DNA of 64,000 bases from an uncultured Solirubrobacterales bacterium (lineage in GTDB: Bacteria > Actinomycetota > Thermoleophilia > Solirubrobacterales > Solirubrobacteraceae), in the NCBI GenBank assembly GCA_963787555.1, contig CAWBDI010000001.1, positions 175,410 to 239,409 of the forward strand, read 5' to 3'. The translations under genes were made by a program, and so were the position numbers. Position 1 is the first letter of the stretch. Each line of letters starts with the position of its first letter. Positions 20,608-60,470 of this stretch are shown here, in pieces. Under the pieces are notes generated by a model that saw only the letters and a program-made list of their open reading frames with translations, was not told the DNA's origin and did not search any database.

Positions 20608-21848
20608 TGCGGCTTCGCCTGCCACGACCGAAGCTCGATGGTCCCGCGCCGACGATCCGGCTGCGGATGACTGTTCTCTACGGGCTGATGTTCCTGCTCA
20701 CCGGGGCCGTGCTGCTGACGATCGGCTACGGGCTCGTGCGACACAACCTCAATGCCCACCATGACTTCCGCGCCGAGCTGCGCTCGCTTGGGCTTCCCGC
20801 GCCGGCGGGTCCACCGTTCTTCGGGCGCCTGGGGTTCGGCCCCGGGTCGCCCGGGGGGCGTGTGGCGCAGGCGGCAGCCGCGCAGCTCCGCAGCGACGCG
20901 CTGCACAAACTGCTCGTCGAGTACCTGCTGGCACTGGGGCTGATGACGATGATCGCGGTGGTGACGGGGTGGCTGCTCGCCGGCCGGGCACTGCGCCCGC
21001 TGCGCGACATCACAGCCACCGCGCGGCGCGTCTCCGGCGAGAACCTCGGCGAGCGGATCGGGCTGGTCGGGCCCGCCGATGAGCTCAAGCAGCTGGCCGA
21101 CACGTTCGACGGGATGCTGGAACGGCTCGACGCGGCGTTCGGCTCACAGCGCCACTTCGTCGCCAACGCTTCACATGAGCTGCGGACGCCGCTCGCGATC
21201 ATGCGCACCGAGGTCGACGTCGCGCTCGCGGACCCCGATGCTGATGCGATCGAGCTGCGAGCGATGGGCGAGGCGGTGCTGGAGACCGTCGACCGCTGCG
21301 AGCGGCTGATCGAGAGCCTGTTGATGCTGGCGCGCAGCGAGGCCGCCACGGGGGGCGGGGAGGAGGTCGATCTAGCCGCGATGGCCGCCTATTGCGTGAC
21401 CGATTTACACGCGCGCTCCGAGGAGGGCGGGGTCCAGGTCCGCGACGAGCTAGAGCCGGCGTGGACGCGGGGCGAGGCCGGCCTGCTCGAGCGGATGATC
21501 GCCAACCTGCTCGACAACGGGATTCGTCACAACCAGCGCGGCGGGTTTCTGGAGGTCCGCACGCGGGTGGTTGGCCCCACCGCGCAATTGCTCGTGCGCA
21601 ACGGCGGGCAGCCGATCGATCCCGCCACCGCGCAGACCCTCAGCGAGCCGTTCCGGCGCCTGGATCGGGCGGTGGGAGGGTTCGGGCTCGGCTTGTCGAT
21701 CGTGCGCTCGGTGGCAGAGGCGCACGGTGGCACGATCACCCTCACCGCGCCCGCGGAGGGTGGCCTCGAGGTCACGGTCGAGCTTCCCGCGATCGTGCCC
21801 GCGGCCAGCGCCTCTAAGCAAACGCCAAGAGCGCTTATGGAGAGCTGA
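20604..21848 (+). CDS. Sensor histidine kinase (CutS-like)
   Basis: Two TM, HAMP, FVANASHELRTPL, NLLDNGIRHN, GFGLGLSI. Confidence 0.94.
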   Translation: MMRLRLPRPKLDGPAPTIRLRMTVLYGLMFLLTGAVLLTIGYGLVRHNLNAHHDFRAELRSLGLPAPAGPPFFGRLGFGPGSPGGRVAQAAAAQLRSDALHKLLVEYLLALGLMTMIAVVTGWLLAGRALRPLRDITATARRVSGENLGERIGLVGPADELKQLADTFDGMLERLDAAFGSQRHFVANASHELRTPLAIMRTEVDVALADPDADAIELRAMGEAVLETVDRCERLIESLLMLARSEAATGGGEEVDLAAMAAYCVTDLHARSEEGGVQVRDELEPAWTRGEAGLLERMIANLLDNGIRHNQRGGFLEVRTRVVGPTAQLLVRNGGQPIDPATAQTLSEPFRRLDRAVGGFGLGLSIVRSVAEAHGGTITLTAPAEGGLEVTVELPAIVPAASASKQTPRALMES

Positions 21849-35973: not shown

Positions 35974-38109
35974 CTAACTCGCCGCGCTCGCGGCCTGGGC
36001 CAAGGATCGCTCCATCAGCTCGCGGTGCACGGCGCGGGTACCGCCTGACCGGCGGGTCCAGCTGCCGTCGGAGTGGAGCGTCCAAGAGAACGTGTCATCG
36101 GCGAGACACCGCTCGAGCGTGTCCTCGAGCTCGAGCTGAAGCTCTGGCTCGTCAACCGGCGCGAGCAGCTCGACCCGCGTGTCGAGGTTGCGCGGCATCA
36201 GGTCCGCCGAGCCGATGTAGTAGACGTGTTCCTCGCCGCGGTGGAACGAGTAGATGCGCGAGTGCTCGAGGAAGCGCCCCACGACCGAGACCACGTTGAT
36301 CGTCTCGCTGACGCCCGGAATGCCCGGGATCAGGCAGCATATCCCGCGTACGTTGAGATCGATCGGCACGCCCGCCTGCGAGGCCCGGTAGAGCGCCTCG
36401 ATACAGCGCTGGTCGACGAGCGAGTTCATCTTCATCGCGATCCGGGCGGGCTCGCCAGCCTGATGAGCGCGGACCGTTTCCTCGATCTCCTCGATCAGTG
36501 GCTCGCGCATCGACGAGGGGGCCACCAGGACCTTGCGCTGGCGCTCGGGATGGCCGTAACCGGTCAACGTGTTGAACAGGTTCGCGACCTCCTCGCCAAT
36601 CTCGCGATCGGTCGTGAACAGCCCAAAGTCCTCGTACAGGCGGGCGTTCTTGGCGTGGAAGTTGCCGGTCCCAATCATCACGTAGTGGCGCACACCGTCG
36701 CCTTCGCGACGCACGATCAGGATCGCCTTGGCGTGTGTCTTCAGACCGGGGATCCCATGGACCACGTGCGCTCCGACTTCCTCCAGCGCCCGTGACCAGC
36801 GAATGTTCCGGCGCTCGTCAAAGCGGGCCTTCAGCTCCACCAGGCACACCGCCTGCTTACCCCTCTCCGATGCCTCGATCAGCGCCGGGACGAGCGCGGA
36901 GTCGTCGGAGGTCCGGTACACGGTCATCTTGATCGCGAGCACGTCGGGGTCCTCGGCGGCCTGATGAACCAGGCGCTCGAGGCTGGTCGCGAACGAGTGA
37001 TACGGATAGTGAACGAGGATGTCCCCGGCGCGCATCGAGGAGAACACGTCTGGTCCTTCGTCGCTCTCGCCGCGCGGGGTCTCGAACGACGGGTGGGTGA
37101 GCGGTGTCCACGGCGCTTGGCGCAGATCGGAATGGCCGTTGATGCCGGCGAGCTCCCAGAGATCGCCGAGGTCGAGCATGCCATCGACGTCGTAGACCTG
37201 AAGCTCGTCGACGCCGAGCCAATCGATCAGCCTGCTCCGGAGCGCCGGGTCCATCGCGGCCCCCACCTCGAGTCGCACCACCTCGCCGAATCGCCGCCGG
37301 CGGAGCTCGTCCTCGACCGCTTGGAGGAGATCGTTGGCCTCGTCGGAGACCTCGAAGTCCGCGTCGCGAGTAACGCGGAAGAGGTTGTAGCTGATGATCT
37401 CCATTCCCGGGAACAGGACATCGAGGTTGGCCGCGATGATCTCCTCGAGCGGGATGAAGGTGTCCTTGTCGGTCACGATGAACCTCGGCAGAACCTCCTT
37501 GGGCACCTTCACCCTCGCGTACGCGTCGTGCTCGAGCGCCGGATCTCGCAGGCGAACGATCAAGCTCAACGAGAGATTCGAGATGTACGGAAACGGCCTT
37601 CCCGGACCGATCGCCAGCGGAGTCAGAACGGGGAAGATCTGCTCGCGGAACTGGCGCTGGATCACTTCGGCGGACGCGTCCGATTCCTTGCAGGTGACGA
37701 TCTTGATCCCGTGCTCCGCGAGCTCCGGCCGGATCACCTCGGAGAACTGCCGGGCATGCCGGCGGTCAAGCGCGCGCACCTTGCTGGCGATGCCTTCGAG
37801 CGTCGCCGAGGGAGGAAGCCCGTCGGGTCCGCGGGCGTCGATCCTCGCATCGAGCTGATCGTGCACGCCGGCGACGCGGATCATGAAGAACTCGTCCAGG
37901 TTGCTGACGAAGATCGCGAGGAATTTGAGCCGCTCAATCAGCGGCAGCGATTCGTCTTCGGCCAGTTGCAGGACGCGGTCGTTGAAGTCAAGCCACGACA
38001 GCTCGCGATTGATGTAGAGCGCGGGGTCGGTGAGGTCGCCTCGCTCCGAAACCCGGCCGTCGACGGCGAGGGCCTCCGCTTGCATCGACTGGATACCGGG
38101 CTCGCTCAT
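35974..38109 (-). CDS. ppk1: Polyphosphate kinase 1
   Basis: YINRELSWLDFNDRVL, NLDEFFMIRVAG, HYPYHSF, ELKARFDE, KTHAK, GRFLEHSR, SADLMPRNLDTRVE. Confidence 0.96.
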   Translation of the reverse strand: MSEPGIQSMQAEALAVDGRVSERGDLTDPALYINRELSWLDFNDRVLQLAEDESLPLIERLKFLAIFVSNLDEFFMIRVAGVHDQLDARIDARGPDGLPPSATLEGIASKVRALDRRHARQFSEVIRPELAEHGIKIVTCKESDASAEVIQRQFREQIFPVLTPLAIGPGRPFPYISNLSLSLIVRLRDPALEHDAYARVKVPKEVLPRFIVTDKDTFIPLEEIIAANLDVLFPGMEIISYNLFRVTRDADFEVSDEANDLLQAVEDELRRRRFGEVVRLEVGAAMDPALRSRLIDWLGVDELQVYDVDGMLDLGDLWELAGINGHSDLRQAPWTPLTHPSFETPRGESDEGPDVFSSMRAGDILVHYPYHSFATSLERLVHQAAEDPDVLAIKMTVYRTSDDSALVPALIEASERGKQAVCLVELKARFDERRNIRWSRALEEVGAHVVHGIPGLKTHAKAILIVRREGDGVRHYVMIGTGNFHAKNARLYEDFGLFTTDREIGEEVANLFNTLTGYGHPERQRKVLVAPSSMREPLIEEIEETVRAHQAGEPARIAMKMNSLVDQRCIEALYRASQAGVPIDLNVRGICCLIPGIPGVSETINVVSVVGRFLEHSRIYSFHRGEEHVYYIGSADLMPRNLDTRVELLAPVDEPELQLELEDTLERCLADDTFSWTLHSDGSWTRRSGGTRAVHRELMERSLAQAASAAS

Positions 38110-38552
38110 GCCACCCGCTCGTCGGCAAACGCGATCGCCGCCAGGTCGACGGGACGCAGCAGGGCCATCAGCTCGCCCTTGGCGACGCCGGCGACGGCGC
38201 CCTTCTTCAGCCTTGCCTGGGTTCCAGTCAAGTCGTGAAGCGTAAGCGAGAACGAGGGATCGTGCCCAACGAGCAGCACATCGCCGAGGCCCGCGGTCAA
38301 GGAATGGACGTCGAACGGTTCTCCCGCCAGCGCCGGCTCGATCGTAACCGGCACTCCGAGCGGTTCGCAGGCGCGCTCGGCGGTCTGGAGGGCGCGCAGC
38401 TTCGGCGAGCTCAAGCACGCGTCGATGTGGGTTCGCAGCACCGCCAACCCGCGTCCGGCAGCGTCCGCCTGGCGCATTCCCCGCTCCGTCAGCGGGCGCT
38501 CGTCATCAGGTACCCCGTCGGCCGCTTCGCCGTGTCGCAGCAACCAAAGCAT
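38106..38552 (-). CDS. sixA: SixA-like histidine phosphatase
   Basis: LLRHGEA, DERPLTERG, SSPKLRALQTA, LLVGHDP. Confidence 0.88.
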   Translation of the reverse strand: MLWLLRHGEAADGVPDDERPLTERGMRQADAAGRGLAVLRTHIDACLSSPKLRALQTAERACEPLGVPVTIEPALAGEPFDVHSLTAGLGDVLLVGHDPSFSLTLHDLTGTQARLKKGAVAGVAKGELMALLRPVDLAAIAFADERVA

Positions 38553-38625
38553 CCTTGAACTGTACGACGCATTGCATGCAATCGCTAGCTGAGCGCTCGG
38601 CATGGTATCTGCATCCCCGCAGCCG

Positions 38626-40283: not shown

Positions 40284-40634
40284 CTAGCGGCGAGGCCGCG
40301 ACCGGCGAACGGGTGCGAGCTCCAGCGCTGCCAGCGCCGCAGGGCTGGGAGCGCATACGTGCAGCAACTCGTAGCGACGTTTGGACATCGCCTCCTCGAT
40401 CGCTGACGGGCTGGGCGCGATCACCTCGAGGTCGTGGCCTGGGATGTCGCGGTCTAGCAGCTGCGCCAGAGGGTGCCTGACGCCGCCAGCCCATCCGATC
40501 GCATTCGCGACCACCGCCACCCGCGTCGGTTGCGGCGCGGGGCGCGCGAGCTGCTTCGGCGCCAGGTTCGCCCCCGCGGGGATGGAGGACACGACCGATG
40601 GGCCCGCGCGGCTGTCGTTGGTTTGATCGTTCAT
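40284..40634 (-). pseudogene. Truncated glycosyltransferase family 4 N-terminal-like fragment
   Basis: RVAVVANAIGWAGGV, HDLEVIAP, YELLHVCAPSPA resemble GT-B N-terminal motifs; ORF stops at 116 aa with no C-terminal domain. Confidence 0.45.
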
Positions 40635-40664: not shown

Positions 40665-40708
40665 AAATCGTGACCGAACGGCCAACTTCTTGTGACTTAC
40701 ATGTGAAC
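40665..40708 (-). promoter_or_regulatory. PHO-box-like array of four 11 bp units upstream of the ppx-sixA-ppk1-pit unit
   Basis: Minus strand GTTCACATGTA AGTCACAAGAA GTTGGCCGTTC GGTCACGATTT. Confidence 0.65.
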
Positions 40709-43370: not shown

Positions 43371-43485
43371 CGCTCGATCATGTCGCGGATTCATCCGCGG
43401 CGCGTCACCACGCGGCCGGGCGCGGCGGCCGTGATGCCAGTTCCCGAGCGGCGGTTCGCGGCCGCCATTCAGCCGCTTTTTGCGT

Positions 43486-43502
43486 GTAAACATGCTGTTA
43501 CT
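43486..43502 (+). promoter_or_regulatory. PHO-box-like pair GTAAAC-N5-GTTACT
   Basis: 11 bp spacing, upstream of the regulator at 43554. Confidence 0.35.
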
Positions 43503-43553
43503 CGGCGAGGAAGCGGCCGATGCCATGACGACGATTGCACTAGAGTGCTCAGC

Positions 43554-44405
43554 ATGTCGCCCGAAAGGAGCGACGAGCAGTCGGGGCCGCCAGCGGCCTC
43601 GCCGCGCTCGCATAACCGGCTCCGGCTAGCGGTCATCGACCGCGACCCCGGGTTCATGCAAGTTCTCTCTAACCGGCTCGACGCGCTCGGCTGGGAGTAT
43701 CGAGCCGTCTCGAGCCCGGTGACCGCCGACGCGCTCGTGTCGATGCGGTTGAACGCGATGGTGATCGATGTCACCGTGCTCGGACCCGGCAGCTGGGAAT
43801 ACCTGGAGCGCGTTTGTGCGCGGCTTCCCGGGCTCGCGGTGATCATCTGCACCGGGCCGTCCTCCGTGGCTCAGCGAGTACGAGGCCTGCGCATCGGCGC
43901 CGATGCGTGGCTGACCAAGCCGTGCCATCCGGAAGAGCTGATCTGCGTGATCGAGGCCGCGATTCGCCGTCACCGGCGCAACGAGATGCCCGAGCTCGAG
44001 GCCGTGATCAGAGTGGGCGAGATCACCGTGCGACCTGACCTCTACCAGGCGTATGCCGGCGCCGCCAGCCTCGAGTTGACCGCCCGCGAGTTCGAGATCC
44101 TGCACCTGCTCGCCCAGTCCGATCGCGTCCTCCGTCGGGAGGAGATCTATGAGCGCGTGTGGGGCTACGCGATGGCGCACGGCGACCGTTCGGTCGACGT
44201 GTTCGTGCGAAAGCTGCGCCAGAAGCTGCGGGCCGCGTCACCGCAGTGGGCCTACATCCACACCCATTTCGGCGTTGGCTATCGATGCGCGCCCGAGCGC
44301 GAGCACGATGGCGTCGAGACCGTGAGCGAGCCGGTCGCCGCCCACGATGGACAGGTCTCGGAGGTCGAGGCCGACGCGGGTCTCGACCCAGCCCTCAGCG
44401 ACTGA
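43554..44405 (+). CDS. PhoB/RegX3-like response regulator with atypical receiver
   Basis: AVIDRD acidic pocket, VIDVTV phospho-site Asp, WLTKP lysine; winged helix RSVDVFVRKLRQKL...THFGVGY. Confidence 0.85.
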   Translation: MSPERSDEQSGPPAASPRSHNRLRLAVIDRDPGFMQVLSNRLDALGWEYRAVSSPVTADALVSMRLNAMVIDVTVLGPGSWEYLERVCARLPGLAVIICTGPSSVAQRVRGLRIGADAWLTKPCHPEELICVIEAAIRRHRRNEMPELEAVIRVGEITVRPDLYQAYAGAASLELTAREFEILHLLAQSDRVLRREEIYERVWGYAMAHGDRSVDVFVRKLRQKLRAASPQWAYIHTHFGVGYRCAPEREHDGVETVSEPVAAHDGQVSEVEADAGLDPALSD

Positions 44406-44436
44406 CGCGAAGATTCAGCGGCCGGGTGCTTCACCT

Positions 44437-44456
44437 GGTCACATCTTGTTCACATC
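44437..44456 (+). promoter_or_regulatory. PHO-box-like pair GGTCACATC / GTTCACATC
   Basis: 9-mers at 44437 and 44448, 8/9 identical, 11 bp apart. Confidence 0.65.
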
Positions 44457-44504
44457 GGCGTTACTAATTGATAACGCGAGATCGCGCTGGCCGGAGCAGC
44501 ATCC

Positions 44505-44876
44505 ATGCGGATGTCGGCAACCATCCCGTCACGGCGGGAGGTGCTCGAGGTGGGGCCGCTCGAGATCCTCCCCGATGAGCACCTGGCGCGCGCGAGCGGC
44601 CGGGCGCTGATGCTCTCGATTCGAGAACTTCGGCTGCTCACCGAGCTCGCGCGGCGAGCCGACCGGATCATGGCGCGCGAGGAGCTGTTCAGCCTTGTCT
44701 GGGGGAAGGAGATGCGTCCGGGGGACCGCTCGGTTGACGTGTACGTCCGCAAGCTGCGAGTGAAGCTCGAGCAAGCGCTGCCCGAGTGGCAATTCATCCA
44801 TACGCACTTCGGCTTCGGCTACCGGATGGCGGCAGAGCGCACACACAGCCGCAACCATCGGTTCACAGCTGGATAA
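44505..44876 (+). CDS. Stand-alone OmpR/PhoB winged-helix DNA-binding protein (no receiver)
   Basis: LSIRELRLL, REELFSLVWG, RSVDVYVRKLRVKL, IHTHFGFGY; 123 aa. Confidence 0.85.
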   Translation: MRMSATIPSRREVLEVGPLEILPDEHLARASGRALMLSIRELRLLTELARRADRIMAREELFSLVWGKEMRPGDRSVDVYVRKLRVKLEQALPEWQFIHTHFGFGYRMAAERTHSRNHRFTAG

Positions 44877-44877
44877 C
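44861..44877 (+). promoter_or_regulatory. PHO-box-like pair GTTCAC-N5-GATAAC upstream of pstS
   Basis: 11 bp spacing; overlaps the last codons of the winged-helix gene. Confidence 0.55.
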
Positions 44878-44927
44878 ACCGCAAGAGGCCGATCCGCAAA
44901 GACTCCCCCGCACACCTAGTGAAGGAG

Positions 44928-46073
44928 ATGACGTTGAGTACAAGTCGCATCAGGGCGGTCGCCTCGCTGGTGGCCGCGTCGCTCGTGGTCGCTGCATGCG
45001 GCTCGAGCAAGTCGAGCTCGAGCTCGACCTCGAGTTCACCGGCCGCAGCGTCCTCGAGCTCGCCGAGCTCGGGCAGCAGCGCAGGAGGCAAGGGCACCAT
45101 CAATGGCGCGGGCTCCACGCTCGCGGCTCCGATCTACCAGCAATGGGGATCGACGCTGAAATCGCAAGGGCTTACCGTGAACTTCAACCCGGTCGGGTCA
45201 GGGGCGGGCATCGCGGAGCTGCAGTCCGCCACGGTCGACTTTGCCGGGAGCGATCCGGCGTTGAAATCGGCCGACAGGTCGAAGGCCAAGGGGCCTCTGT
45301 ACCAGTTCCCGGTCGCGTTTGGCGCGATCACGGTCTCCTACAACCTGTCCGGGACCAAGAGCGGACTGAAGCTCGATGGCACCACGCTGGCCAACATCTT
45401 CCTGGGCAAGATCAAGACCTGGAACGATCCCGCGATCAAGTCGCTGAACCCGGGGATGAGCCTTCCCAGCACGCCGATCACGGTCGTGCATCGCTCGGAC
45501 TCCTCGGGCACCACCAACGGGTTCACGACCTATCTCTCAGACGTCGACCCGACATGGAAGTCCCAGGTCGGGGCGGGCAAGGACGTCAAGTGGCCGACCG
45601 GCACAGGCGCGGCGAAGAACTCCGGCGTCGCCGCGGCGGTCAAGCAGACCTCGGGAGCGGTTGGCTACGTCGAGCAGGCGTACGCGATCGAGAACAACTT
45701 CACCTACGCGGCGGTGAAGAACTCGGCCGGCACCTACGTGCTGCCCTCGATTGCCAACACCTCGGCCGCGGCGTCGGGTATCAAGGTCCCCTCGGATCTC
45801 GGGATCTCGACGATCAACTCGCCGAACCCCTCCGCTTACCCGATCGTCTCGCAGACGTTCCTGGTTGCCTACGAGGACATGTGCAAGGCGGGCGTAAGCC
45901 AATCGACGGCATCCGCGGTCAAGCATTTCCTTACCTACGCATTCGGGCAAGGGCAGAGCACGCTGGGCGCCGGAAGCAACCAGCTGCCTTACGCGCCGCT
46001 GCCGGCGGACATCGCGTCGAAGGACAATGCGCAGCTGGCAAAGATGAAGTGCAACGGATCACCGCTCTCGTAA
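44928..46073 (+). CDS. pstS: Phosphate ABC transporter substrate-binding lipoprotein
   Basis: Lipobox VAAC, GAGST, GSGAG, FAGSD, HRSDSSGTT, GYVEQAYA, AYPIVS; start may be TTG 44934. Confidence 0.96.
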   Translation: MTLSTSRIRAVASLVAASLVVAACGSSKSSSSSTSSSPAAASSSSPSSGSSAGGKGTINGAGSTLAAPIYQQWGSTLKSQGLTVNFNPVGSGAGIAELQSATVDFAGSDPALKSADRSKAKGPLYQFPVAFGAITVSYNLSGTKSGLKLDGTTLANIFLGKIKTWNDPAIKSLNPGMSLPSTPITVVHRSDSSGTTNGFTTYLSDVDPTWKSQVGAGKDVKWPTGTGAAKNSGVAAAVKQTSGAVGYVEQAYAIENNFTYAAVKNSAGTYVLPSIANTSAAASGIKVPSDLGISTINSPNPSAYPIVSQTFLVAYEDMCKAGVSQSTASAVKHFLTYAFGQGQSTLGAGSNQLPYAPLPADIASKDNAQLAKMKCNGSPLS

Positions 46074-46083: not shown

Positions 46084-47127
46084 GTGGAGTCAAGCTCCGT
46101 CACAAACGTCTCCGGCGGCCGCTCGGTTTTCGAGCGGTCGCCGCTAGGCCGGTTACCAGATCGGGCGATGCAGGTCGGGCTGACCGCGCTCGCGGTCGCG
46201 ATTCTAGCCCTGCTCGCCTACTTCTTCATCAGGCTGATCGGCCAGTCACAGAAGGCTTTCAGCCAATTCGGGCTCAGCTTCATCTTCGGCAACGACTGGG
46301 ACGTCGCGCGCAACATCTACCACGGCGCGGCGCTGCTGGTGGGAACGCTGATCACCTCCGCGATCGCGCTCCTCATCGGCGTGCCGGTCGCGATCGCCAC
46401 CGCTCTGTATCTCACGGAGCTGTGCCCGCGCCGCGCTCGCGCGCCGCTCGCAATCCTCGTCGATCTGCTGGCGGCAGTGCCGTCGGTCGTCTACGGGCTA
46501 TGGGGCGTGTTCGTGCTGATCCCCAAGTTGCTGCCGGCGGAGAAGTGGTTTGCCAGCACCTTTTCGTTCATTCCGTGGATCGGCGGCGGCACAACGACGG
46601 GCCCCAACTACTTCATCGCCGGACTGATCCTGGCGATCATGATCCTTCCGATCGTGTCCGCGATCTCACGCGAGGTGATCGCGACCGTGCCGCCCGAGAA
46701 CAAGGAGGCGGCCCTGGCGCTGGGTGCCACGCGGTGGGAGATGATCCGGATGGCGGTGCTGCCGTACGCCCGACCCGGGATCACCGGCGGCGCGATGCTG
46801 GGGCTGGGGCGAGCGCTCGGCGAGACGATCGCGGTGGTGCTGGTGATCGGGAACGCGCCTGTAATCGGCCATCACCTGTTCAGCCAGGGCTACAGCCTCG
46901 CGGCGGTGATCGCGAACGAGTTCGGCGAGGCGGCCAACACGCCGATTCACTCCTCGGCCCTGTTTGCCGCCGGCCTGGTGCTGTTTGTGTTGACGCTGAT
47001 CGTCAACATCATCGCGCGCTGGTTCGTCGCTCGGGGACACCGAAAGCACCGCGGGACGGGCGCTACGGGCGCGACCGGGGCGCCCGCGGCCCCAGCGCCG
47101 GCGGCGGCGGCTGGTGAGGCAGCATGA
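46084..47127 (+). CDS. pstC: Phosphate ABC permease
   Basis: [38 protein letters not shown]. Confidence 0.95.
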   Translation: MESSSVTNVSGGRSVFERSPLGRLPDRAMQVGLTALAVAILALLAYFFIRLIGQSQKAFSQFGLSFIFGNDWDVARNIYHGAALLVGTLITSAIALLIGVPVAIATALYLTELCPRRARAPLAILVDLLAAVPSVVYGLWGVFVLIPKLLPAEKWFASTFSFIPWIGGGTTTGPNYFIAGLILAIMILPIVSAISREVIATVPPENKEAALALGATRWEMIRMAVLPYARPGITGGAMLGLGRALGETIAVVLVIGNAPVIGHHLFSQGYSLAAVIANEFGEAANTPIHSSALFAAGLVLFVLTLIVNIIARWFVARGHRKHRGTGATGATGAPAAPAPAAAAGEAA

Positions 47128-47996
47128 ATCTGGCCAGCCTTCCCCAGGTCAGCGCGCGCCGCCGCCGCACCGATCAGGTGATGCGAGGCCTGCTGCTGCT
47201 CGCGACCCTGATCGCGCTGGTGCCGCTGTTGCTGGTGATCTATTACCTGCTGCACAAGGGGCTTGGTGCCTTGAGCGGCAGCTTCTTCAGCTCAGATCCG
47301 AATGGGAACTTCTTCGGCGATCCCGGCGGCACCCGTAGCGCGATCTTCGGCACGCTGGAGATCGTCGGGCTCGCGACGCTGATCTCGGTGCCGATCGGGA
47401 TCGGCGTGGCCCTGTACCTGACCGAGTACGGCCGGGACTCTGGCTTCGGGAACGTGATCCGGTACTTCATCGACGTGATGACCGGCGTGCCGTCGATCGT
47501 CTTTGGCTTGTTCATCTACATCTCGCTGGTCCTCGGCCACGTCGGCGGCAGCGGGTTTGCCGGTTGGAAAGGGTCGATCGCGCTCGCGTTGCTGATGCTT
47601 CCGATCGTCACTCGCTCGGCCGAGGTTGTGCTGTTGCTGGTGCCCGACAGCCTGCGAGAGGCGGCGCTCGCGCTTGGGGCCCCTCGCTGGCGGGTGGTCC
47701 TGCGAGTGGTGCTGCCAACAGCGATTCCCGGCCTGGTGACTGGTTCGCTGCTAGCGGTCGCGAGGGGAATGGGCGAGACCGCGCCGCTGCTGTTTACGAC
47801 CGCGGGCGCATTCGCGCTGACCGGCAGCCTCAACGCGCAGATGAACGCGCTCCCGCTGCAGATATACAACGACATCCTTTCCCCAAGGTCGGTGGTGATC
47901 CAGCGTGCCTGGGGCGCGGCGCTGACGCTGGTCGCGCTCGTTTTGATCCTGAATCTGATCGCTCGACTCGCCTCGCGAAGGAGCCGCATGGCATGA
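47124..47996 (+). CDS. pstA: Phosphate ABC permease
   Basis: [44 protein letters not shown]. Confidence 0.95.
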
Positions 47997-48862
47997 TCCC
48001 GCCAGAAACCACGAGCAAGGAAACAACTGAAATGTCGAGTGCCGGGGGCCAGTCAGGACAAGCCGAAGCGGCGCCAGATGTCGCCGCGCTCGGCGTCCGC
48101 GAGGGCGCCGGCCACGCGGTCAACGTCAAGGACCTGCACGCCTACTACGGCCAGCTCCACAGCATCAAGGGGATCAACCTCGAGTGCCCGGCCAACCAGG
48201 TGACCGCGTTGATCGGGCCGTCTGGGTCGGGCAAGTCCACCGTGATCCGCTGCATCAATCGGATGCACGAGGAGATTCCGGGCGCGCGCGCCGAAGGCAG
48301 CGTCACGCTCGATGATCTCGACGTCTACGGGCCGGGGGTCGATGTCACCGCCGTCAGGCGCATGATCGGGATGGTCTTCCAGAAGCCCAACCCGTTTCCG
48401 ACGATGTCGATCTTCGACAACGTGGCGGCTGGTCTGAGATTGAGCGGCACGCGCAGCGACAACCTGCGCGAACGGGTACACAGGTCGCTGCGCGCGGTGG
48501 GACTCTGGAACGAGGTCAAGAACCGGCTGAATGAGCCGGGGATCGGCCTCTCGGGCGGGCAGCAGCAGCGGCTGTGCATCGCTCGCACGGTCGCCGTTGA
48601 GCCCGAGGTGATCCTGATGGACGAGCCTGCCTCGGCGCTCGATCCGATCTCGACGTTGAAGGTCGAGGAGCTGATCGACGAGCTCAAGGAGCGCTACACG
48701 ATCGTGATCGTCACCCACAACATGCAGCAGGCCGCGCGGGTGGCGAACTCGACTGCGTTCATGCTCGACGGGGAGCTGATCGAGCACGGCCCGACCAACG
48801 ACATCTTCACCAACCCCAACGACGAGCGGACCGAGCGCTACGTCACGGGCAAGTTCGGCTAG
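47993..48862 (+). CDS. pstB: Phosphate ABC ATP-binding protein
   Basis: [49 protein letters not shown]; alternative ATG 48032. Confidence 0.97.
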
Positions 48863-48873: not shown

Positions 48874-49572
48874 ATGCAAGAAACTCGCCATCAGTTCCGC
48901 GAGACGCTGAAGCAGCTGGAGAAGCAGGCCCTGGGAGGGCTCGACATGGTGATCGGGCAGCTTGATCGGGCGCTCGAGGCAATCTCCTACCAGGATGTCG
49001 AGCTGGCCGGGATGGTCGTGGCCGACGATGACCGGATCGACGGGCGCTACCTCGAGGTGCACCAGGGGATCCTCTCCACTTTGGCGCGCCAGGCACCGGT
49101 GGCCGGAGACCTTCGAATCGTGGCGGCCTTGCTGCACGTCATTCGCTGCGTCGAGCGGATGGGTGACCAGTGCGTGAACATCGCCAAGCTTGTGCCGCTG
49201 TCCGGTTACGAGGCACCGAAGGACAAGGACATCCTCGACCTGATCGAGCGCATGGGACAGCTGGCCCGCTCGCAGGTCATGCAGTCCAAGGATGCCTTCG
49301 CCTCGCGCAACGTGGCGCTCGCCCAAGACCTGGTCCATCAGGACGCGGGAATCAATCGGCTGAACCGTGACATCTTCAGACGCGCGGTCGAGGTCGGCGA
49401 GGAGCAGGAGGTGCGCGAGTGGGCAATGTTCATGATCTTGGTCGCACGCTGTCTCGAGCGGATCGGCGATAACACGGTCGACATCGCCGAGCAGACCGTG
49501 TTCGTTGTCACGGGCCTGTTCCGCGAATTCGCAGACGCCTCGACGCCCTCGGAGGCGGCTCCGGCTTCATGA
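48874..49572 (+). CDS. phoU: Phosphate signalling protein PhoU
   Basis: DDRID, ARQAPVAGDLR, ERMGD, LERIGDNTVDIAE. Confidence 0.96.
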   Translation: MQETRHQFRETLKQLEKQALGGLDMVIGQLDRALEAISYQDVELAGMVVADDDRIDGRYLEVHQGILSTLARQAPVAGDLRIVAALLHVIRCVERMGDQCVNIAKLVPLSGYEAPKDKDILDLIERMGQLARSQVMQSKDAFASRNVALAQDLVHQDAGINRLNRDIFRRAVEVGEEQEVREWAMFMILVARCLERIGDNTVDIAEQTVFVVTGLFREFADASTPSEAAPAS

Positions 49573-49604: not shown

Positions 49605-49788
49605 GCCCGGAGAGAGAGAAGGCGAGCGTAATTCACCTTGCCGCGCCCCGTGTGACGATTTCATATACGCGGCGCGACAATTGGCCCAGCGCCAACTGAC
49701 TGCGGCCTGGCTGATGGAGCGCCGCGCGCGACACAGATTGTCCACGGGGCCAATGACCAGCTCCCGTGAGGCGCCCTATCGTCTCCAC

Positions 49789-50538
49789 ATGCGCGCGCGG
49801 CCGCCTCAGATCGTTGCGTTTGGGGGTGGGGGCTTCTCGACCGAGTGGGGCAACCCGTTGCTCGACGATCACGTGCTCAACCTGACGGGCGTCGATCGCC
49901 CTCGCGTATGCTTTTTGCCGACCGCCAGCGGCGACGCCGACCATTACGTGGTCCGCTTCTACCGCGCGTTCGCGGCGCCGCGCTGCGAGCCTTCGCATAT
50001 CTCGCTGTTTCGACGCGAGACGGGCGTTGGCGATCCCCGCGCGCACCTGATGGCTCAGGATCTGGTGTACGTCGGCGGGGGCAGCCTGATTTCGCTGCTC
50101 GGGACGTGGCGGTCCCACGGAATCGATCTCGCCTTGCGAGACGCTTGGCGCGCGGGCGTCGTGATGTGCGGAGGCTCGGCCGGTTCGCTGTGCTGGTTCG
50201 CGCACGCCGTCAGCGGTTTTCACCAAGGCCCGGCGAGACGGATCGAGGCGCTCGGCTTCCTGCCATGGAGCAACGCCGTTCACTACCACGAGGAACCTGA
50301 CCGCGCAAGCGCGTTCACCGCGGCGGTCGCCGATGGGTTGCCGCCGGGGTATGGGGTGGGCGACGCGGCAGCGCTACATTTCATCGGTACCGAGTTGTCC
50401 GAAGTGGTCGCATCACGCCCTCACGCACGCGCCGTGTACGTGTCCTCCGATGGCGCCGGAGGCGCGACCGAGCGTGAGTTGCAGGTTCGGTTCCTCGGCA
50501 CGCAGACAGCCTGCAGCGGCCAGCCGATCGCAGCGTGA
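49789..50538 (+). CDS. Peptidase E / S51 family (copy 1)
   Basis: CFLPTASGD, VYVGGGS, nucleophile GGSAGSLCW, NAVHY; start could be 49753. Confidence 0.88.
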   Translation: MRARPPQIVAFGGGGFSTEWGNPLLDDHVLNLTGVDRPRVCFLPTASGDADHYVVRFYRAFAAPRCEPSHISLFRRETGVGDPRAHLMAQDLVYVGGGSLISLLGTWRSHGIDLALRDAWRAGVVMCGGSAGSLCWFAHAVSGFHQGPARRIEALGFLPWSNAVHYHEEPDRASAFTAAVADGLPPGYGVGDAAALHFIGTELSEVVASRPHARAVYVSSDGAGGATERELQVRFLGTQTACSGQPIAA

Positions 50539-51359
50539 CGCCGGCGGAGCCAGCGCCCGAGGGCGCTGACCGTCGCCGCATCCTCGCGGTGGGAGGGGGC
50601 GGCTTCACGATGCAGGAGCGCAACCCGGCGCTCGACAGGCTGGTGCTGACGCTGACCGGGAAAGCGCTGCCGCGAATCTGCTTCCTGCCGACCGCTAGCG
50701 GCGATCCCAAAGATCAGCTGACTCGCTTCTATGAGCGCTTTGGCGGTTGGCCATGCGAGCCGAGCGCGCTGTCGCTGTTTCATCTCGGGCGCGATCGGAT
50801 CGATCCGCTCCAGCACCTTCGCTCGCAGGACGCGATCTACGTCGGCGGCGGGTCGATGCGCAACATGCTTGCGATCTGGCGGGAGCATGGAGTCGATGAA
50901 GCGATGCGGGAAGCGTGGCAGTCGGGCGTCGTGATCGCCGGCTTGAGCGCGGGCGCGATGTGCTGGTTCGAGGGCGGCGTGAGCATCAGCGGTGGCGCGC
51001 CGCAGCCAGTGGCCGGGCTGGGACTGCTGCCGGGCAGCTTGTCGGTTCACCTCGGCAACGAGTCAGGAAGGCTGCCGGTGTACCGGGCGGCGGTGGCGGC
51101 CGGCGAGCTGCCACCGGGGTACGCCGCGGACGACGGGGCTGCGCTGCTGTTCGTCGGCACGCGGCTGGCCGAATGCGTCGCCTCGCATCCGCGGGCGCGC
51201 GTGGTCCAGGTCAGCCCTGACGGCGACGGTGGCGTGCGCGAGCGCGAGCTCGCGGTCAGGCTGCTGGCGGGTCGGCGGCGCCGCGGCGTCAGCGACGAGG
51301 GGGCCGACGGCGTCTCGGAGCTTCGCGCGCTACGCGCCGGTCGCCATCGCTGGGACTGA
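50535..51359 (+). CDS. Peptidase E / S51 family (copy 2)
   Basis: CFLPTASGD, IYVGGGS, GLSAGAMCW, LSVHL; start overlaps copy 1 stop. Confidence 0.88.
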   Translation: MTPAEPAPEGADRRRILAVGGGGFTMQERNPALDRLVLTLTGKALPRICFLPTASGDPKDQLTRFYERFGGWPCEPSALSLFHLGRDRIDPLQHLRSQDAIYVGGGSMRNMLAIWREHGVDEAMREAWQSGVVIAGLSAGAMCWFEGGVSISGGAPQPVAGLGLLPGSLSVHLGNESGRLPVYRAAVAAGELPPGYAADDGAALLFVGTRLAECVASHPRARVVQVSPDGDGGVRERELAVRLLAGRRRRGVSDEGADGVSELRALRAGRHRWD

Positions 51360-52072: not shown

Positions 52073-53488
52073 TCAGCGCGTGCCGGGCGCCGCTGGCACG
52101 TCCGCCCAGAGGGTGGAGCCGTCTGCGCGAAGCGGCGAAGTGGGGAGGCGAAGCGTGAAGATCGCGCCACCATCGGGCGCGTTCTCGACCGCCGCGGAGC
52201 CACCGTGTTGCTCAGCCACCTGCCGCACGATTGCCAACCCCAGGCCGCTACCTTGGCGCCCCCGGCTGTTGGCACCGCGAAAGAAGCGATCGAATACATA
52301 CGGCAGGTCCTCGCTCACGACGCCGGTCCCGTGGTCGCGCACGCTGAGACCATCGGCGTTCACGGTCACCTCAACCATGCCGCCGGGCGGCGAATGACGA
52401 GCCGCGTTGTCGAGCAGGTTGTTGATCGCGCGCTCCAGCCGTTCGGGGACTCCCTCGACGATCACCGGCTCGAGCTCCGCCTCGAAGTGCACGTTGGCAG
52501 CGTTGCGTCGCGCCCAGTCGACCGAGTCGGCGGCGATTCGGTCGAGGCGCACTTCCTCGGTCGCGCCCGCGGGCTGGTCGCCGCGTGCGAGCTCGATGAG
52601 GTCGCCGACCAGCGTGGTCAGCTCCTCGCTCTGTTCGACCACGTCGCTCAGCAAGCGGCGGCGCTCCTCATCGTTCAGGTGCGCCTCGGCGAGCAGCACC
52701 TCGACGTTGGTGCGCAGGCTCGTGACAGGCGTGCGGAGCTCGTGGGAGGCGTCGGCGACAAGCTGGCGCTGCGCCCGGACGGACTCATCGAGCGCCGCGC
52801 GCGATGCCTCCAGTCGCTCCAGCATCGTGTTGAAGCGATCCGCGAGCTGGCCGATCTCATCGTCGGCGTGGATGCGCAGGCGCCGCGAGAGATCATCGGT
52901 CTCGCCGATCTCCTGCGCCGTCTGGGCGACCTCCGCTAGCGGCGCCAGCACATGGCGGGCGGCGACCCGCCCGAGAGCGGCGGCGAGCGCCACGCCGCCC
53001 GCACAGAGCAAGATCAGCACCAGGCGAAGATGCGAGAGGATCCGATCGACGCCCGCGAGCGGGCGCGCGAGCTCGACCGCCACCGGCGCGCCATTGTTCG
53101 TGCTGTCGTGGAAGGTGATCAGGCGCAAGTGGTTGCCGTAGATCGTGACGTCTCGAAGCGTCATCGCGGGTTGCCCGGAGGCGACCGCCTGGGTGCTCGA
53201 GTCGGTCGGCAGGTTCTCCCCACCCCAGCTGTCAAAGGGCGCGCCAGCGCCGCTGACGATCTGCCCGTAAGGCGCCGGCCCGCCGGCGTTGGGAGGGAGG
53301 GAAGCGACGCCGCCGCCGAGGCCGGCAGGCCCGGTCTGGATCACCAGCGCCGCCTGAGCCCTAAGCGCGCTGTCCACCTGGCCGCGCAACTGGCCCCGCA
53401 CGACCATGTAGCAGATGGCGCAGGCGAGCACGACCGCGACTGCGACCGCGCCGGCGGCTGCATATGCGAGTCTGCGACGCAGCGGCAC
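52073..53488 (-). CDS. Sensor histidine kinase (MprB-like)
   Basis: LVADASHELRTPVTSLRTNVE, NLLDNA, DHGTG, FDRFFRG, GSGLGLAI. Confidence 0.94.
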   Translation of the reverse strand: MPLRRRLAYAAAGAVAVAVVLACAICYMVVRGQLRGQVDSALRAQAALVIQTGPAGLGGGVASLPPNAGGPAPYGQIVSGAGAPFDSWGGENLPTDSSTQAVASGQPAMTLRDVTIYGNHLRLITFHDSTNNGAPVAVELARPLAGVDRILSHLRLVLILLCAGGVALAAALGRVAARHVLAPLAEVAQTAQEIGETDDLSRRLRIHADDEIGQLADRFNTMLERLEASRAALDESVRAQRQLVADASHELRTPVTSLRTNVEVLLAEAHLNDEERRRLLSDVVEQSEELTTLVGDLIELARGDQPAGATEEVRLDRIAADSVDWARRNAANVHFEAELEPVIVEGVPERLERAINNLLDNAARHSPPGGMVEVTVNADGLSVRDHGTGVVSEDLPYVFDRFFRGANSRGRQGSGLGLAIVRQVAEQHGGSAAVENAPDGGAIFTLRLPTSPLRADGSTLWADVPAAPGTR

Positions 53489-53502
53489 CGCCGGCGATCC
53501 TC

Positions 53503-54180
53503 TCAGTCCCGCAGGATGTATCCGACGCCCCTGACCGTGTGAAGCAGGCGAGACTCGCCTCCCTCCTCGGTCTTGCGACGCAAATAACCCATGTACACGC
53601 CGAGCGCGTTAGAGGTCGGACCGAAGTCGTAGCCCCAGACGTTCTCGAAGATCTGCGAGCGCGTGAGCACCTGGCGCGGGTGACGCAGGAACAGCTCGAG
53701 CAGCGAGAACTCGGTGCGTGAGAGGTCGATCTCACGCTCGCCGCGATGGACCTCGTGGGCTACGGGGTCGAGCACCAGATCCCCGTATCGGAGCACCTCG
53801 CCCTGGGCGGCGCCGTCGCTCGTGCGGCGCAGCAGCGCTCGCAACCGCGCCTGCAGCTCCCTGAGCGCGAACGGCTTGACGAGGTAGTCGTCAGCGCCGA
53901 CGTCGAGGCCTTGGACGCGGTCATCGATCGCGTCGCGGGCGGTGAGCATCAAGATCGGGGTTCGATCACCCGCCTGGCGCATGCGCCGGCAGACCTCGAT
54001 CCCATCGAGGCGGGGCATCGCGACGTCGAGGATCACTGCGTCGGCCGGCGAGCTCGCCAGCGCGTCGAGTGCTTCCTCGCCGTCGGCCGCGAGCGCCACT
54101 TCGTAGTTGTCGAGCCGCAGGGCGCGCTCGAGAGCCCGCCGCACAGCGGGCTCGTCGTCGACCACGAGAACGCGCGCCAT
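53503..54180 (-). CDS. OmpR-family response regulator (MprA-like)
   Basis: [45 protein letters not shown]. Confidence 0.95.
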
Positions 54181-54284
54181 TTCACAAATGATGCCGCGTG
54201 CGCGTAAAAGTTGGTGAAGAAGCCCTGCAGGTCGTGATGCGCACAAATCGATCGTAGACCGCGCGCGCGCCAGAATGAGGACTG

Positions 54285-60029: not shown

Positions 60030-60470
60030 TCAATCCTCCTCGCGGGGCGCGCGCCGTGCGCGCTTGCGCTCGGCCTGCCGTCGTTTGCCCTCGAGTCGTC
60101 TGCGCACGGAGGCCTTTGTCGGCTTCGTCGGGTGCCGCGGGCGCTGGACCGCGAGCGCTGAGGTCAAGCGCGCGCGGAGGCGCTCGAGCGCGAGCTCCCG
60201 ATTGCGCGCCTGGCTACGCGCGTCCTGTGCCACGGCGACCACGCGGGGCCCGGCGCGAGCGATGATCCGGCGCTTCTGCGCGTCGGTCAGCGCGGACGAG
60301 GCCGCGACGTCGAAGCTTGCCTCGACGCGCGAGGCGGTTACGTTCGCGTGCTGGCCGCCTGGGCCTGAGGAGCGCGAGGCGCGAACCGTTACTTCACCTA
60401 AGGGAATCGCTGCGTAGCGCCCGAGCTGGATTGGATCTTCCACTGCAATTTGTGTTCGGGTTGTGAACAT
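60030..60470 (-). CDS. arfB: Alternative ribosome rescue peptidyl-tRNA hydrolase
   Basis: SRSSGPGGQHAN GGQ motif, RSQARNRE, basic tail PTKPTKASVRRRLEGKRR. Confidence 0.93.
   Translation of the reverse strand: MFTTRTQIAVEDPIQLGRYAAIPLGEVTVRASRSSGPGGQHANVTASRVEASFDVAASSALTDAQKRRIIARAGPRVVAVAQDARSQARNRELALERLRARLTSALAVQRPRHPTKPTKASVRRRLEGKRRQAERKRARRAPREED

Follow-up and report, generated by a model that had tools for sequence, protein, structure and literature searches.

The locus described here raises the question of how a phosphate-uptake operon is coupled to transcription when the regulator encoded beside it has an altered receiver and no neighbouring kinase. The route by which the PstSCAB/PhoU signal reaches transcription has yet to be settled even for E. 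coli and mycobacteria, where the phosphate signal is thought to pass through the PAS domain of the kinase. The window is a 64,000-nt stretch of a contig from an uncultured Solirubrobacterales bacterium. In this window the first-pass annotation had noticed an atypical receiver regulator and a receiver-less winged-helix twin. Both ORFs lie where they had been placed, and their recognition helices and wings read as quoted in the BLASTP alignment. An orphan regulator and its twin beside the phosphate-uptake operon point to an undescribed wiring of the phosphate-starvation response in these soil bacteria.

Gene content and conservation of the locus

The two genes and those that follow them are:

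43554..44405, + strand: orphan OmpR/PhoB-family regulator with a pseudo-receiver, 283 aa (Pfam; alignment to PrrA, RpaA and MtrA; conservation over 78, then 237 loci)
44511..44876, + strand: stand-alone OmpR-type winged-helix protein, 121 aa, or 123 aa from 44505 (Pfam match to Trans_reg_C only; 50% identity; more than 100 clusters; dN/dS)
44919..46073, + strand: pstS, phosphate-binding lipoprotein, likely start TTG 44934 after the Shine-Dalgarno sequence GAAGGAG (Pfam PBP_like_2; sequence)
46084-47127, + strand: pstC (ORF, translation, synteny)
47124-47996, + strand: pstA (ORF, translation, synteny)
~47993-48862, + strand: pstB (ORF, translation, synteny)
48874..49572, + strand: phoU (Pfam PhoU, two repeats)

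The small gene directly precedes pstSCAB-phoU. A module made up of the small protein, pstSCAB, phoU and the regulator was found in about 230 loci and in three gene orders; the loci were drawn from four 80-locus sets, and some genomes were sampled more than once. Per set, synteny of the module was seen in about 70 of 80, 62-80 of 80 and most of 80 loci. The 80-locus set of the commonest arrangement includes the type strains Solirubrobacter soli, S. taibaiensis and S. deserti. In the alternative gene orders phoU adjoins the regulator, or the regulator together with the small gene. In two loci of Conexibacteraceae (L068 and L069) the pair is directly beside phoU, and neither a pstS nor a pstC homologue was detected in between. 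The arrangement of the two genes with pstSCAB-phoU is real and conserved in Solirubrobacterales.

The regulator has an incomplete phosphorylation pocket

The regulator matches PF00072 (Response_reg) at 33.8 bits, against a gathering cut-off of 30.2, and PF00486 (Trans_reg_C) at 74.1 bits, the winged-helix domain spanning residues ~150-245. An N-terminal receiver fold, a C-terminal Trans_reg_C domain and full-length alignment to PrrA, RpaA and MtrA place it in the OmpR/PhoB family. Its pocket consists of D29-R30-D31, D72, T100 and K122. The first-pass annotation had called the acidic motif IDRD degenerate, and phmmer alignments with PrrA, RpaA and MtrA bear this out by placing R30 where the acidic pair has its second Asp. 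The five-residue catalytic set is incomplete in that this second Asp is Arg, the other four residues being invariant across the family. In the conservation set of 237 loci, members of the family have Arg (161), Ser (50), Thr (11), Gly (5) or Ala (2) at this position, and never an acidic residue. By contrast with this variation, the first Asp, the phospho-Asp, the Thr and the Lys are invariant over ~230 loci, and so is the Asp right after the lost one. Three Cys and one His (C88, C99 and C124-H125) are also invariant. The usual MP after the phospho-Asp is missing, as had been noticed: positions D+3/D+4 read V-L, the family consensus is D-L-A-V-L-G-P, and Pro at D+4 was seen in no sequences but six canonical regulators that had entered the family set inadvertently. 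With a non-acidic second Asp, the domain falls under the published definition of a pseudo-receiver, of which this is the commonest type (PMC12632262).

The pocket can also be read in an orthodox way. The regulator would then be the PhoP of the lineage, phosphorylated on D72 by an unlinked PhoR/SenX3-type kinase or, in the window's subclade, cross-phosphorylated by a PrrB-like kinase (52073-53608); D29 and D31 would together make a functional D-x-D site for the metal, and the small protein would be an accessory. We regard this as a rather unlikely reading, and if it is true little more would remain than a divergent PhoP accompanied by an accessory protein. The invariance of the first Asp, phospho-Asp, Thr and Lys, and of the Asp after the lost one, is what would be expected of a regulator that is still phosphorylated. 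Acidic-pair substitutions do not always abolish phosphorylation, and most orphan regulators are typical receivers with distant kinases (PMC12632262). However, the residue that directly binds metal is never acidic here and varies among R, S, T, G and A as if unconstrained.

The Pho equivalog models do not single out this protein. It reached 91.8 bits against the cut-off of 296 for TIGR02154 and 91.5 bits against 270 for NF053854, scores no better than those with RpaB, YycF or MtrA. Membership of the GlnR family was rejected, as PF21695 (GlnR_1st) gave no match to the regulator at E ≤ 0.01. An AlphaFold2 model built with 38 close homologues had a mean pLDDT of 62.9, with alpha4 below 50 and disordered, too poor to fix the positions of R30 and of the Cys cluster.

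The small protein is a conserved DNA-binding domain

Translation of the small gene probably starts at the second ATG (44511) rather than at 44505, which gives 121 aa, the length of most homologues. Its sole Pfam match is Trans_reg_C (PF00486, residues 33-108 of 123) and no second domain was found, so that the description of a twin without a receiver holds. The protein ends ~10 residues past the wing. It is of neither the SARP nor the ToxR/CadC type, having no BTAD and no transmembrane or periplasmic segment (Pfam; sequence). That the ORF might be a lineage-limited fragment had been allowed for in the first-pass annotation. This reading was rejected: a length of ~121 aa is kept in more than 100 homologue clusters, dN/dS is 0.08-0.20 at dS 0.7-1.0, indicating strong purifying selection, and the gene has its own conserved promoter-proximal operator.

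BLASTP aligned the regulator and the small protein at 50% identity over 109 residues (E = 1e-33), which makes the small protein paralogous to the DNA-binding part of the regulator. The recognition helices, RSVDVFVRKLRQKL in the regulator and RSVDVYVRKLRVKL in the small protein, differ only at F/Y and Q/V. The wings, IHTHFGVGY and IHTHFGFGY respectively, have in common the rare form HTHFG.GY, in which Phe stands in place of the Arg of PhoP/PhoB that in PhoB enters the minor groove. Because helix and wing are nearly identical, both proteins very probably read the same 11-bp repeats, and the earlier claim that they should share a box is supported to that degree. The alpha2-alpha3 loop differs at 4 of 6 positions, being KEMRPG in the small protein and YAMAHG in the regulator. 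Within the small-protein family this loop is conserved: W, G, M and DRS vary little or not at all.

A genome search with a profile of distant domain-only relatives gave loci in Solirubrobacterales or unclassified actinomycete MAGs only. Tandem fusions in three relatives (P0242, P0245 and P0249) carry two such domains in one chain without receivers, and show that such domains can work paired without them.

Tandem 11-bp repeats precede the regulator gene, the small gene and pstS

The operators and promoter elements of the locus are:

43481..43502, - strand: reverse operator, two 11-bp units AGTAACAGCAT GTTTACACGCA, within the conserved block CCGCTGTTTGCGTGTAAACATCCTGTGACC (weight matrix 14.6 bits)
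43541..43546, + strand: -10-like hexamer TAGAGT (TAsAGT in relatives), 7 nt before the regulator ATG (upstream alignments)
44437..44480, + strand: operator before the small gene, four 11-bp direct repeats GGTCACATCTT GTTCACATCGG CGTTACTAATT GATAACGCGAG (weight matrix 24.0, 16.3 and 12.3 bits)
44495..44502, + strand: conserved AGCAGCAT, candidate -10 of the small gene (conserved across loci; role inferred)
44861..44882, + strand: pstS operator, two units GTTCACAGCTG GATAACACCGC (weight matrix 21.0 bits)

The repeats are of the GTTCACA / GTnAC type, as in the Streptomyces PHO box, and the motif matches the 11-nt Streptomyces PhoP repeat G(G/T)TCAYYYR(G/C)G (PMC2275107). The first-pass annotation had given each of the two genes its own upstream box; these boxes are real and conserved, but that of the regulator is reversed and pstS has a third one. 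The operator of the regulator gene lies ~52-73 nt upstream of the start (centre ~63 nt), and the reversed pair of units is conserved in 74/78, 56/61 and 70/79 loci. The -10-like hexamer was present in 66 of the 78 loci of set A, and its position predicts a leaderless mRNA. The four-unit pattern before the small gene was matched by 71 of the 81 sequences compared, which were those of 80 loci and of the window itself. Its last unit occupies the expected -35 position. The candidate -10, AGCAGCAT, follows the core of that unit by 21 nt, and ATG 44511 comes 8 nt after it; here too a leaderless transcript is predicted. The two-unit operator of pstS, conserved in 76 of 80 loci, lies within the final codons of the small gene and has that gene's TAA stop inside its second unit. 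A consensus promoter scan found no sigma-70 consensus promoter. One weak hairpin was seen 3' of the regulator gene. Parts of the locus were present in six DNA metagenome runs, and no RNA runs with the locus were found.

Eight weight-matrix matches occur in the window, against 0-3 in shuffled sequences, and five of the eight are at the regulator-small gene-pstS locus. The remaining matches were not counted in the module. A four-unit box at ~40665-40708 (- strand) scores well and stands before a 116-aa ORF, behind which come ppx, a SixA-like gene and ppk; real homologues of this ORF are lacking, and the upstream regions of ppx in 17 relatives have no such four-unit boxes. The matches at 49158-49179, inside phoU, and at 60447-60468, over the first codons of an ArfB-like gene, were taken as chance.

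Linkage to pstSCAB-phoU and PHO-box-type repeats at candidate Pho promoters put the regulator in a Pho context. Canonical PhoR/PhoP proteins elsewhere in these genomes might nevertheless be the readers of the boxes, and the pair would then control something else or only fine-tune the response. The failure of the regulator to reach any PhoB/PhoP equivalog threshold would fit such a reading, but the pair stays with pst-phoU through three gene orders, including the Conexibacteraceae loci where it directly adjoins phoU, and the three operators all belong to the pair's own genes and pstS. We therefore think it quite improbable.

Kinase genes near the module

The regulator has no adjacent cognate kinase in any of the three gene orders; in locus L072 the gene after it encodes a small membrane protein. 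Using tblastn with three kinase cores, no histidine kinase was detected within ~10 kb in 79 of the 80 loci of the commonest arrangement, and one was found in the other locus. The earlier statement that no kinase is adjacent is thus right for the immediate neighbours, and the regulator is an orphan across the order, but the window itself contains an orthodox pair 2.5 kb beyond phoU:

52073-54327, - strand: orthodox regulator-kinase operon, PrrA/PrrB-like

The kinase of this operon (52073-53608, - strand) has HAMP, HisKA and HATPase domains and a periplasmic sensor, without a PAS domain. The regulator encoded with it resembles PrrA (217 bits) and M. tuberculosis PhoP most, and RegX3 less (147 bits). 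At least 22 relatives have an orthodox regulator-kinase operon 2-7 kb past phoU, which favours orthodox phosphorylation of the orphan regulator. Against this stand the kinase-free surroundings of nearly all loci of the commonest arrangement, as well as the features of the operon itself. The absence of PAS, the PrrA-like regulator and the linkage to pst in the window's own subclade only led us to reject it as a dedicated PhoR/PhoP. Among the genes that a genomic survey reports for seven Solirubrobacter strains are phoB, phoP, phoU and pst, but no phoR (PMC10722151), which is a weak further argument against an orthodox kinase.

A Pho-linked regulator that is an orphan with a crippled metal site suggests that the kinase step may be absent or unconventional, in which case the input would have to act on the regulator itself. 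As the metal-binding Asp is lost yet the remaining pocket is invariant, either phosphorylation by an unlinked donor or direct control by a partner would be expected. With the first option phosphorylation would be inefficient; with the second, a partner such as PhoU/PstB would act directly on the pseudo-receiver. Input from PhoU, polyphosphate or a small phosphodonor, as the first-pass annotation had supposed, is a reasonable guess for which the gene neighbourhood speaks. A bolder proposal, which we put forward only tentatively, is that the phosphate response of the whole order works without a histidine kinase: the pseudo-receiver would be acted on directly by PstB/PhoU, by a ligand that contains phosphate, or by a redox or metal cue at the invariant Cys3-His cluster, and the Pho-induced domain-only copy would give the feedback for which other systems use autophosphorylation circuits.

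A model for phosphate control by the pair

The two proteins are most likely the Pho regulators of the lineage, acting on the same boxes, with the small one as a Pho-induced, signal-independent partner. With moderate confidence we go further and regard the orphan pseudo-receiver regulator, its domain-only paralogue and pstSCAB-phoU as the lineage's Pho control module, in which the small protein may be a Pho-induced co-activator.

According to this model both proteins would recognise the tandem GTTCACA / GTnAC direct repeats. The regulator would be made from its own leaderless promoter, and the reverse operator upstream of that promoter implies autoregulation. Dimerising via its receiver, it would occupy pairs of repeats and, at low phosphate, switch on the small gene through four repeats and pstS through two; judged from its geometry, the operator would replace the -35 element at both promoters. 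The signal would come from a source other than a neighbouring kinase. Since the small protein lacks a receiver, it would bind the same repeat arrays without needing the signal. We lean towards a role as co-occupant or co-activator, in which it would widen the occupied stretch of multi-repeat operators and make that occupancy more stable. It would thereby provide positive feedback, in place of the self-amplification of a phoBR operon, while PhoU would supply the negative limb.

The opposite sign is conceivable for the small protein, although we doubt it. Induced by the Pho response, it would occupy repeats or cap arrays of the regulator without productive contact with RNA polymerase, and this negative feedback would limit or end pst induction. 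The recognition helix and wing held in common with the regulator would allow such competition, the lack of a receiver removes the normal source of dimerisation, and the small gene owns the strongest operator and so would be induced first. The altered alpha2-alpha3 loop also fits an antagonist, but its conservation in the small protein suggests a specific contact instead of the loss of one. Moreover, the isolated DNA-binding domain of Streptomyces PhoP binds better than the full protein (PMC2275107), and PhoU already gives negative feedback in known systems.

Comparison with known systems

The first-pass annotation did not recognise the architecture as a described one. We found no publication describing the combination, but each part belongs in a described class, namely atypical orphan regulators and NnaR-like receiver-less OmpR domains. 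The nearest phosphate system is Streptomyces PhoR-PhoP (Sola-Landa et al. 2008, PMC2275107), in which an actinobacterial OmpR-family regulator controls pstS and phoU through tandem 11-nt repeats with a GTTCAC core; for the present proteins such control is predicted. The PhoP operators resemble those described here in overlapping the -35 element and in forming multi-unit arrays with core and support sites, and two 11-nt units are the minimum needed for binding there (PMC2275107). Streptomyces PhoP, however, has a normal receiver and is co-transcribed with its kinase PhoR beside phoU, whereas the present locus has no linked kinase, has lost the metal-binding Asp and has gained a receiver-less paralogue.

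GlnR boxes are gTnAc repeats with 11-nt spacing. In actinomycetes the orphan, atypical OmpR-family regulator GlnR controls the gene of the receiver-less NnaR, which acts on part of the same regulon (PMC12632262; PMC6277429). GlnR and NnaR serve nitrogen control, while the present pair is tied to phosphate genes. The N-terminal domain of NnaR is HemD-like, and NnaR is not closely paralogous to the GlnR DNA-binding domain; GlnR has lost most of its pocket and forms a Pfam family of its own, PF21695, which the present regulator does not match. ChxR, HP1043 and NblR are also orphans with degenerate receivers; they function unphosphorylated, often as constitutive dimers, and their binding sites are direct repeats (PMC3960148, PMC5253667, PMC12632262). 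In these proteins the phospho-Asp or several pocket residues are lost, in contrast to the second Asp alone here; none is a Pho regulator and none is paired with a domain-only copy.

The small protein has counterparts as a lone output domain. Ellison and McCleary reportedly observed in 2000 that the isolated effector domain of PhoB binds pho boxes and activates constitutively. Such laboratory effector domains of PhoB or PhoP are engineered truncations, whereas the small protein would be a natural equivalent, a conserved separate gene behind a candidate Pho box. GerE, with a role in sporulation, occurs naturally as a single domain that corresponds to the output part of NarL/FixJ-family regulators; like the small protein it is a lone output domain of a response-regulator family, but it belongs to a different helix-turn-helix family and has no full-length paralogue at the same locus. 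For R30, the CheY mutants D13K and D13R, said to have been described by Bourret et al. in 1990, carry a basic residue at the corresponding second metal-binding Asp and are reportedly active without normal phosphorylation. They are laboratory mutants of a single-domain chemotaxis protein, and the present family also has Ser, Thr, Gly or Ala at this position, so that a positive charge is not required.

The pair may be a natural case of a transcription factor and its domain-only paralogue on the same operators. Feedback of this kind is well known in eukaryotes and, to our knowledge, little documented in bacteria. The cultured carriers of the module, S. soli, S. taibaiensis and S. deserti, make these ideas testable.

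Gene order and conservation of the module

The module lies in a window of 68.5% G+C from an uncultured bacterium of the order Solirubrobacterales (Thermoleophilia, Actinomycetota), to which the nearest database proteins are also assigned by name. A gene for an orphan regulator of the OmpR/PhoB family is followed by a small gene, which encodes a stand-alone winged-helix protein, and by the pst-phoU genes. The features of this locus are as follows:

43481-43502, opposite strand: regulator-gene operator, a repeat pair in the conserved block CCGCTGTTTGCGTGTAAACATCCTGTGACC
43554-44405, plus strand: regulator, 283 residues
43815-43928, within the regulator: Cys3-His cluster (C88, C99, C124, H125)
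44437-44480: small-gene operator, four 11-bp direct repeats with a consensus across relatives
44505 or 44511 to 44876, plus strand: small gene
44861-44882: pstS operator, two units, GTTCACAGCTG GATAACACCGC
Following on the plus strand, in this order: pstS, pstC, pstA, pstB and phoU
Near the module, minus strand: ppk, SixA-like histidine phosphatase, ppx/gppA, VKOR-DsbA pair, lipoprotein
52073-54327, minus strand: PrrA/PrrB-like regulator-kinase operon, 2.5 kb past phoU and convergent with it

Four sets of 80 genome loci were fetched. In the first set, drawn from the small protein's close relatives, the order regulator, small gene, pstSCAB, phoU occurred in about 70 of the 80 loci; nine were ordered small gene, pst, phoU and then regulator, and two Conexibacteraceae loci consisted of regulator, small gene and phoU with the pst genes absent between them. 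A profile of distant relatives that have the domain alone yielded a second set, whose 80 loci all belonged to Solirubrobacterales or unclassified actinomycete MAGs; pstC was found in 75, phoU in 69 and the regulator in 62, and the prevailing order was small gene, pst, phoU, regulator. A further set, retrieved with a regulator from this last arrangement, took in Solirubrobacter soli DSM 22325, S. taibaiensis KCTC 29222 and S. deserti CPCC 204708. Because the association recurred in three gene orders across these sets, we conclude that the regulator, its small paralogue and pst-phoU stay linked across an order-level clade.

Two paralogous Peptidase_S51 genes (peptidase E/cyanophycinase-like; 49681-51359) directly follow phoU, and one relative's locus (L067) has a homologue at the same place. 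The SixA-like phosphohistidine phosphatase gene (His_Phos_1; 38106-38603, minus strand) lies between ppx and ppk and is overlapped by the long ppk ORF, so the annotated ppk N-terminus is probably too long.

The small protein

The first-pass annotation had described the second protein as lacking a receiver, and Pfam indeed found Trans_reg_C alone. Its recognition helix and wing and those of the regulator were also as quoted there; their DNA-binding domains share 50% identity across 109 residues (E = 1e-33). Most homologues are 121 residues long and align from the second Met, which makes 44511 the likelier start. More than 100 clusters (90% identity) hold proteins of about 121 residues at least 80% identical to the small protein, and 710 matches at E < 1e-10 were obtained among 1.84 billion representatives. 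The nearest relatives are mostly 105-150 residues long, with the domain alone and the wing FIHTH.G.GYR also present. Against ten orthologues, dN/dS was 0.08-0.20 at dS of about 0.7-1.0. Judged from its sequence, the small gene is real. Three representative relatives (P0242, P0245, P0249) carry two Trans_reg_C winged-helix stretches in tandem on one chain without a receiver; by their domain layout they amount to a putative covalent "dimer" for two adjacent repeats.

The regulator and its acidic pocket

The regulator contains Trans_reg_C and a Response_reg domain that barely passed the Pfam cut-off (33.8 bits against 30.2). It failed the PhoB equivalog thresholds and the GlnR family model. In phmmer alignments with PrrA, RpaA and MtrA, D29-R30-D31 fell on the canonical D-D-D, and therefore R30 replaces the second Asp, the residue of the receiver acidic pair in direct contact with the metal. 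At the phospho-Asp, Thr and Lys positions stand D72, T100 and K122. Both the degenerate pocket and the lack of M-P after the phospho-Asp had been noticed in the first reading, and both are borne out, V-L following D72.

Pocket conservation was counted over 237 loci, six of which were canonical regulators caught by accident. In the regulator family the first Asp is D in 100%, while the second-Asp position is R in 161, S in 50, T in 11, G in 5 and A in 2, and never acidic. The following residue is an invariant D, and the phospho-Asp, Thr and Lys are likewise invariant. Since the rest of the pocket is invariant, we argue that the site probably retains a use, whether in phosphorylation, with a phosphate-like ligand or in dimer contacts centred on the Asp, as seen in GlnR.

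A recent review of receiver domains applies the term pseudo-receiver wherever even one of the five residues is missing, and gives a non-acidic second Asp as the most frequent type; it adds that phosphorylation can survive such substitutions and that nearly all well-studied atypical regulators are orphans (PMC12632262). The regulator is thus atypical by sequence, which does not mean that it is unphosphorylated.

Across about 230 loci C88, C99 and C124-H125 are nearly invariant in the receiver. C88 sits in alpha3, C99 immediately precedes the conserved Thr, and C124-H125 are K+2 and K+3 in the motif KPCH (KPF in canonical regulators). The cluster could be a metal or redox site, adjacent both to the switch residues and to the dimer face formed by alpha4-beta5-alpha5. 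The AlphaFold2 model (mean pLDDT 62.9, alpha4 below 50) was too weak to inform the pocket.

Operators and promoters

Each of the two genes had been proposed to have its own upstream box, and this holds across relatives. The four-repeat small-gene operator, gnTCACAncTt cTTCACAtcnn cgTcACGantC GgTAACgCgnn, was kept in 71 of 81 sequences (80 loci and the window), with a conserved AGCAGCAT about 21 nt past the repeats, immediately before the start codon. The regulator-gene operator, about 52-73 nt upstream of the start, was present in 74 of 78, 56 of 61 and 70 of 79 loci. The pstS operator (76 of 80 loci) is embedded in the last small-gene codons (R F T A G stop; 44855-44882), with the TAA inside the second repeat, and the conserved C-terminal "FT" of the homologues probably reflects this DNA motif and not a need of the protein. 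On its 3′ side come the conserved block GAGACTC and then GAAGGAG, a strong Shine-Dalgarno sequence.

Unlike pstS, neither the regulator nor the small gene is preceded by a Shine-Dalgarno sequence. Both have a -10-like element 7-8 nt before the start codon (43541-43556 and 44495-44513), at the regulator a TAsAGT hexamer 7 nt ahead of the ATG; these positions suggest that both transcripts are probably leaderless. Just past the regulator stop codon, a 9-pair hairpin with a weak T tail (44420-44440) extends into the first repeat of the small-gene operator and may act as a terminator.

The repeat agrees with that of Streptomyces PhoP, an 11-nt unit G(G/T)TCAYYYR(G/C)G that is required in two copies for binding and occurs in operators adjoining the -35 region of pstS and phoU (PMC2275107). 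A weight matrix built from relatives gave eight matches in the window against 0-3 in shuffles, five of the eight within this locus. A four-unit PHO-like array, GTTCACATGTA AGTCACAAGAA GTTGGCCGTTC GGTCACGATTT (40665-40708, minus strand), lies about 30-70 nt ahead of a 116-residue ORF (40284-40634) that heads ppx, the SixA-like gene and ppk. This ORF and the array both lacked conservation in the relatives checked, so a Pho link to the polyphosphate genes is unconfirmed.

Kinase genes near the module

The claim that no kinase is adjacent stood for the immediate neighbours. A tblastn search that took the three window kinases' catalytic cores as queries found a kinase within about 10 kb of the regulator at only one of 80 loci of the regulator-derived set, 9 kb away; the other 79 had none. 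At one relative's locus (L072) the gene following the regulator encodes a 122-residue membrane protein. The window itself has the PrrA/PrrB-like operon near phoU. In the window's subclade, at least 22 relatives have close orthologues of it 2-7 kb past phoU, and the rest of the order lacks them at this position. The kinase combines a periplasmic sensor with HAMP, HisKA and HATPase domains and is devoid of PAS; the best matches of its partner regulator are PrrA at 217 bits and M. tuberculosis PhoP at 202 bits, with RegX3 at 147 bits. As a partner of the orphan this operon is unconvincing, given the missing PAS domain, a regulator that is PrrA-like and not RegX3-like, and the subclade-bound linkage; we regard it as a neighbour by descent and at most a possible cross-talk partner.

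A kinase-less reading of the module is plausible, if unproven, and we hold it tentatively, at well short of an even chance. The orthodox alternative, in which a distant kinase serves the regulator, deserves similar weight.

Two more orthodox OmpR-type regulator-kinase pairs, one of them VanR-O/VanS-O-like, lie at 12000-14169 and 19918-21848; three orthodox two-component systems thus share 64 kb with an orphan at the pst locus. A full-length LigD gene (54279-56687; phosphoesterase, ligase and primase-polymerase domains) is divergent from the PrrA-like regulator gene.

Proposed mechanism and known systems

The base-contacting positions of helix 3 are identical in the regulator and the small protein except for F versus Y, and the two share a rare wing in which Phe replaces the minor-groove Arg; they should therefore read the same repeats. 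Given its own promoter and the reversed operator upstream, the regulator is probably made at all times and probably controls its own gene. The small gene should be induced together with pst, because its operator is the strongest and stands in an activator position. In laboratory truncations, a PhoB domain stripped of its receiver binds DNA at least as well as intact PhoB. The same was found for a truncated PhoP domain (PMC2275107), and by analogy the small protein should need no signal for binding. A model in which the proteins would act pairwise on adjacent repeats is supported by the tandem-domain relatives. We lean towards the small protein as a co-activator or occupancy-extender, since its alpha2-alpha3 loop is conserved; a role as a competitor is almost as likely. 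The signal might enter through an unlinked kinase or a small phosphodonor acting on an inefficient pocket, through the Cys3-His cluster, or through direct PhoU/PstB action, for which the persistent adjacency to phoU is the one pointer.

The closest system in function is Streptomyces PhoR-PhoP, which differs in its normal receiver and linked kinase. Closest in design is actinomycete GlnR, an orphan atypical regulator whose regulon includes the gene for the receiver-less OmpR-type protein NnaR (PMC6277429; PMC12632262). A genome survey of Solirubrobacter named phoB, phoP, phoU and pst genes and not phoR (PMC10722151). The first-pass annotation had not recognised the architecture as a described one, and literature searches covering atypical regulators, OmpR domains that stand alone and the phosphate genes of Solirubrobacterales likewise found no description of the regulator-twin pairing. 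The module is a real, conserved and apparently undescribed variant made of known kinds of parts. It is carried by cultured strains, in which experiments would be simple.
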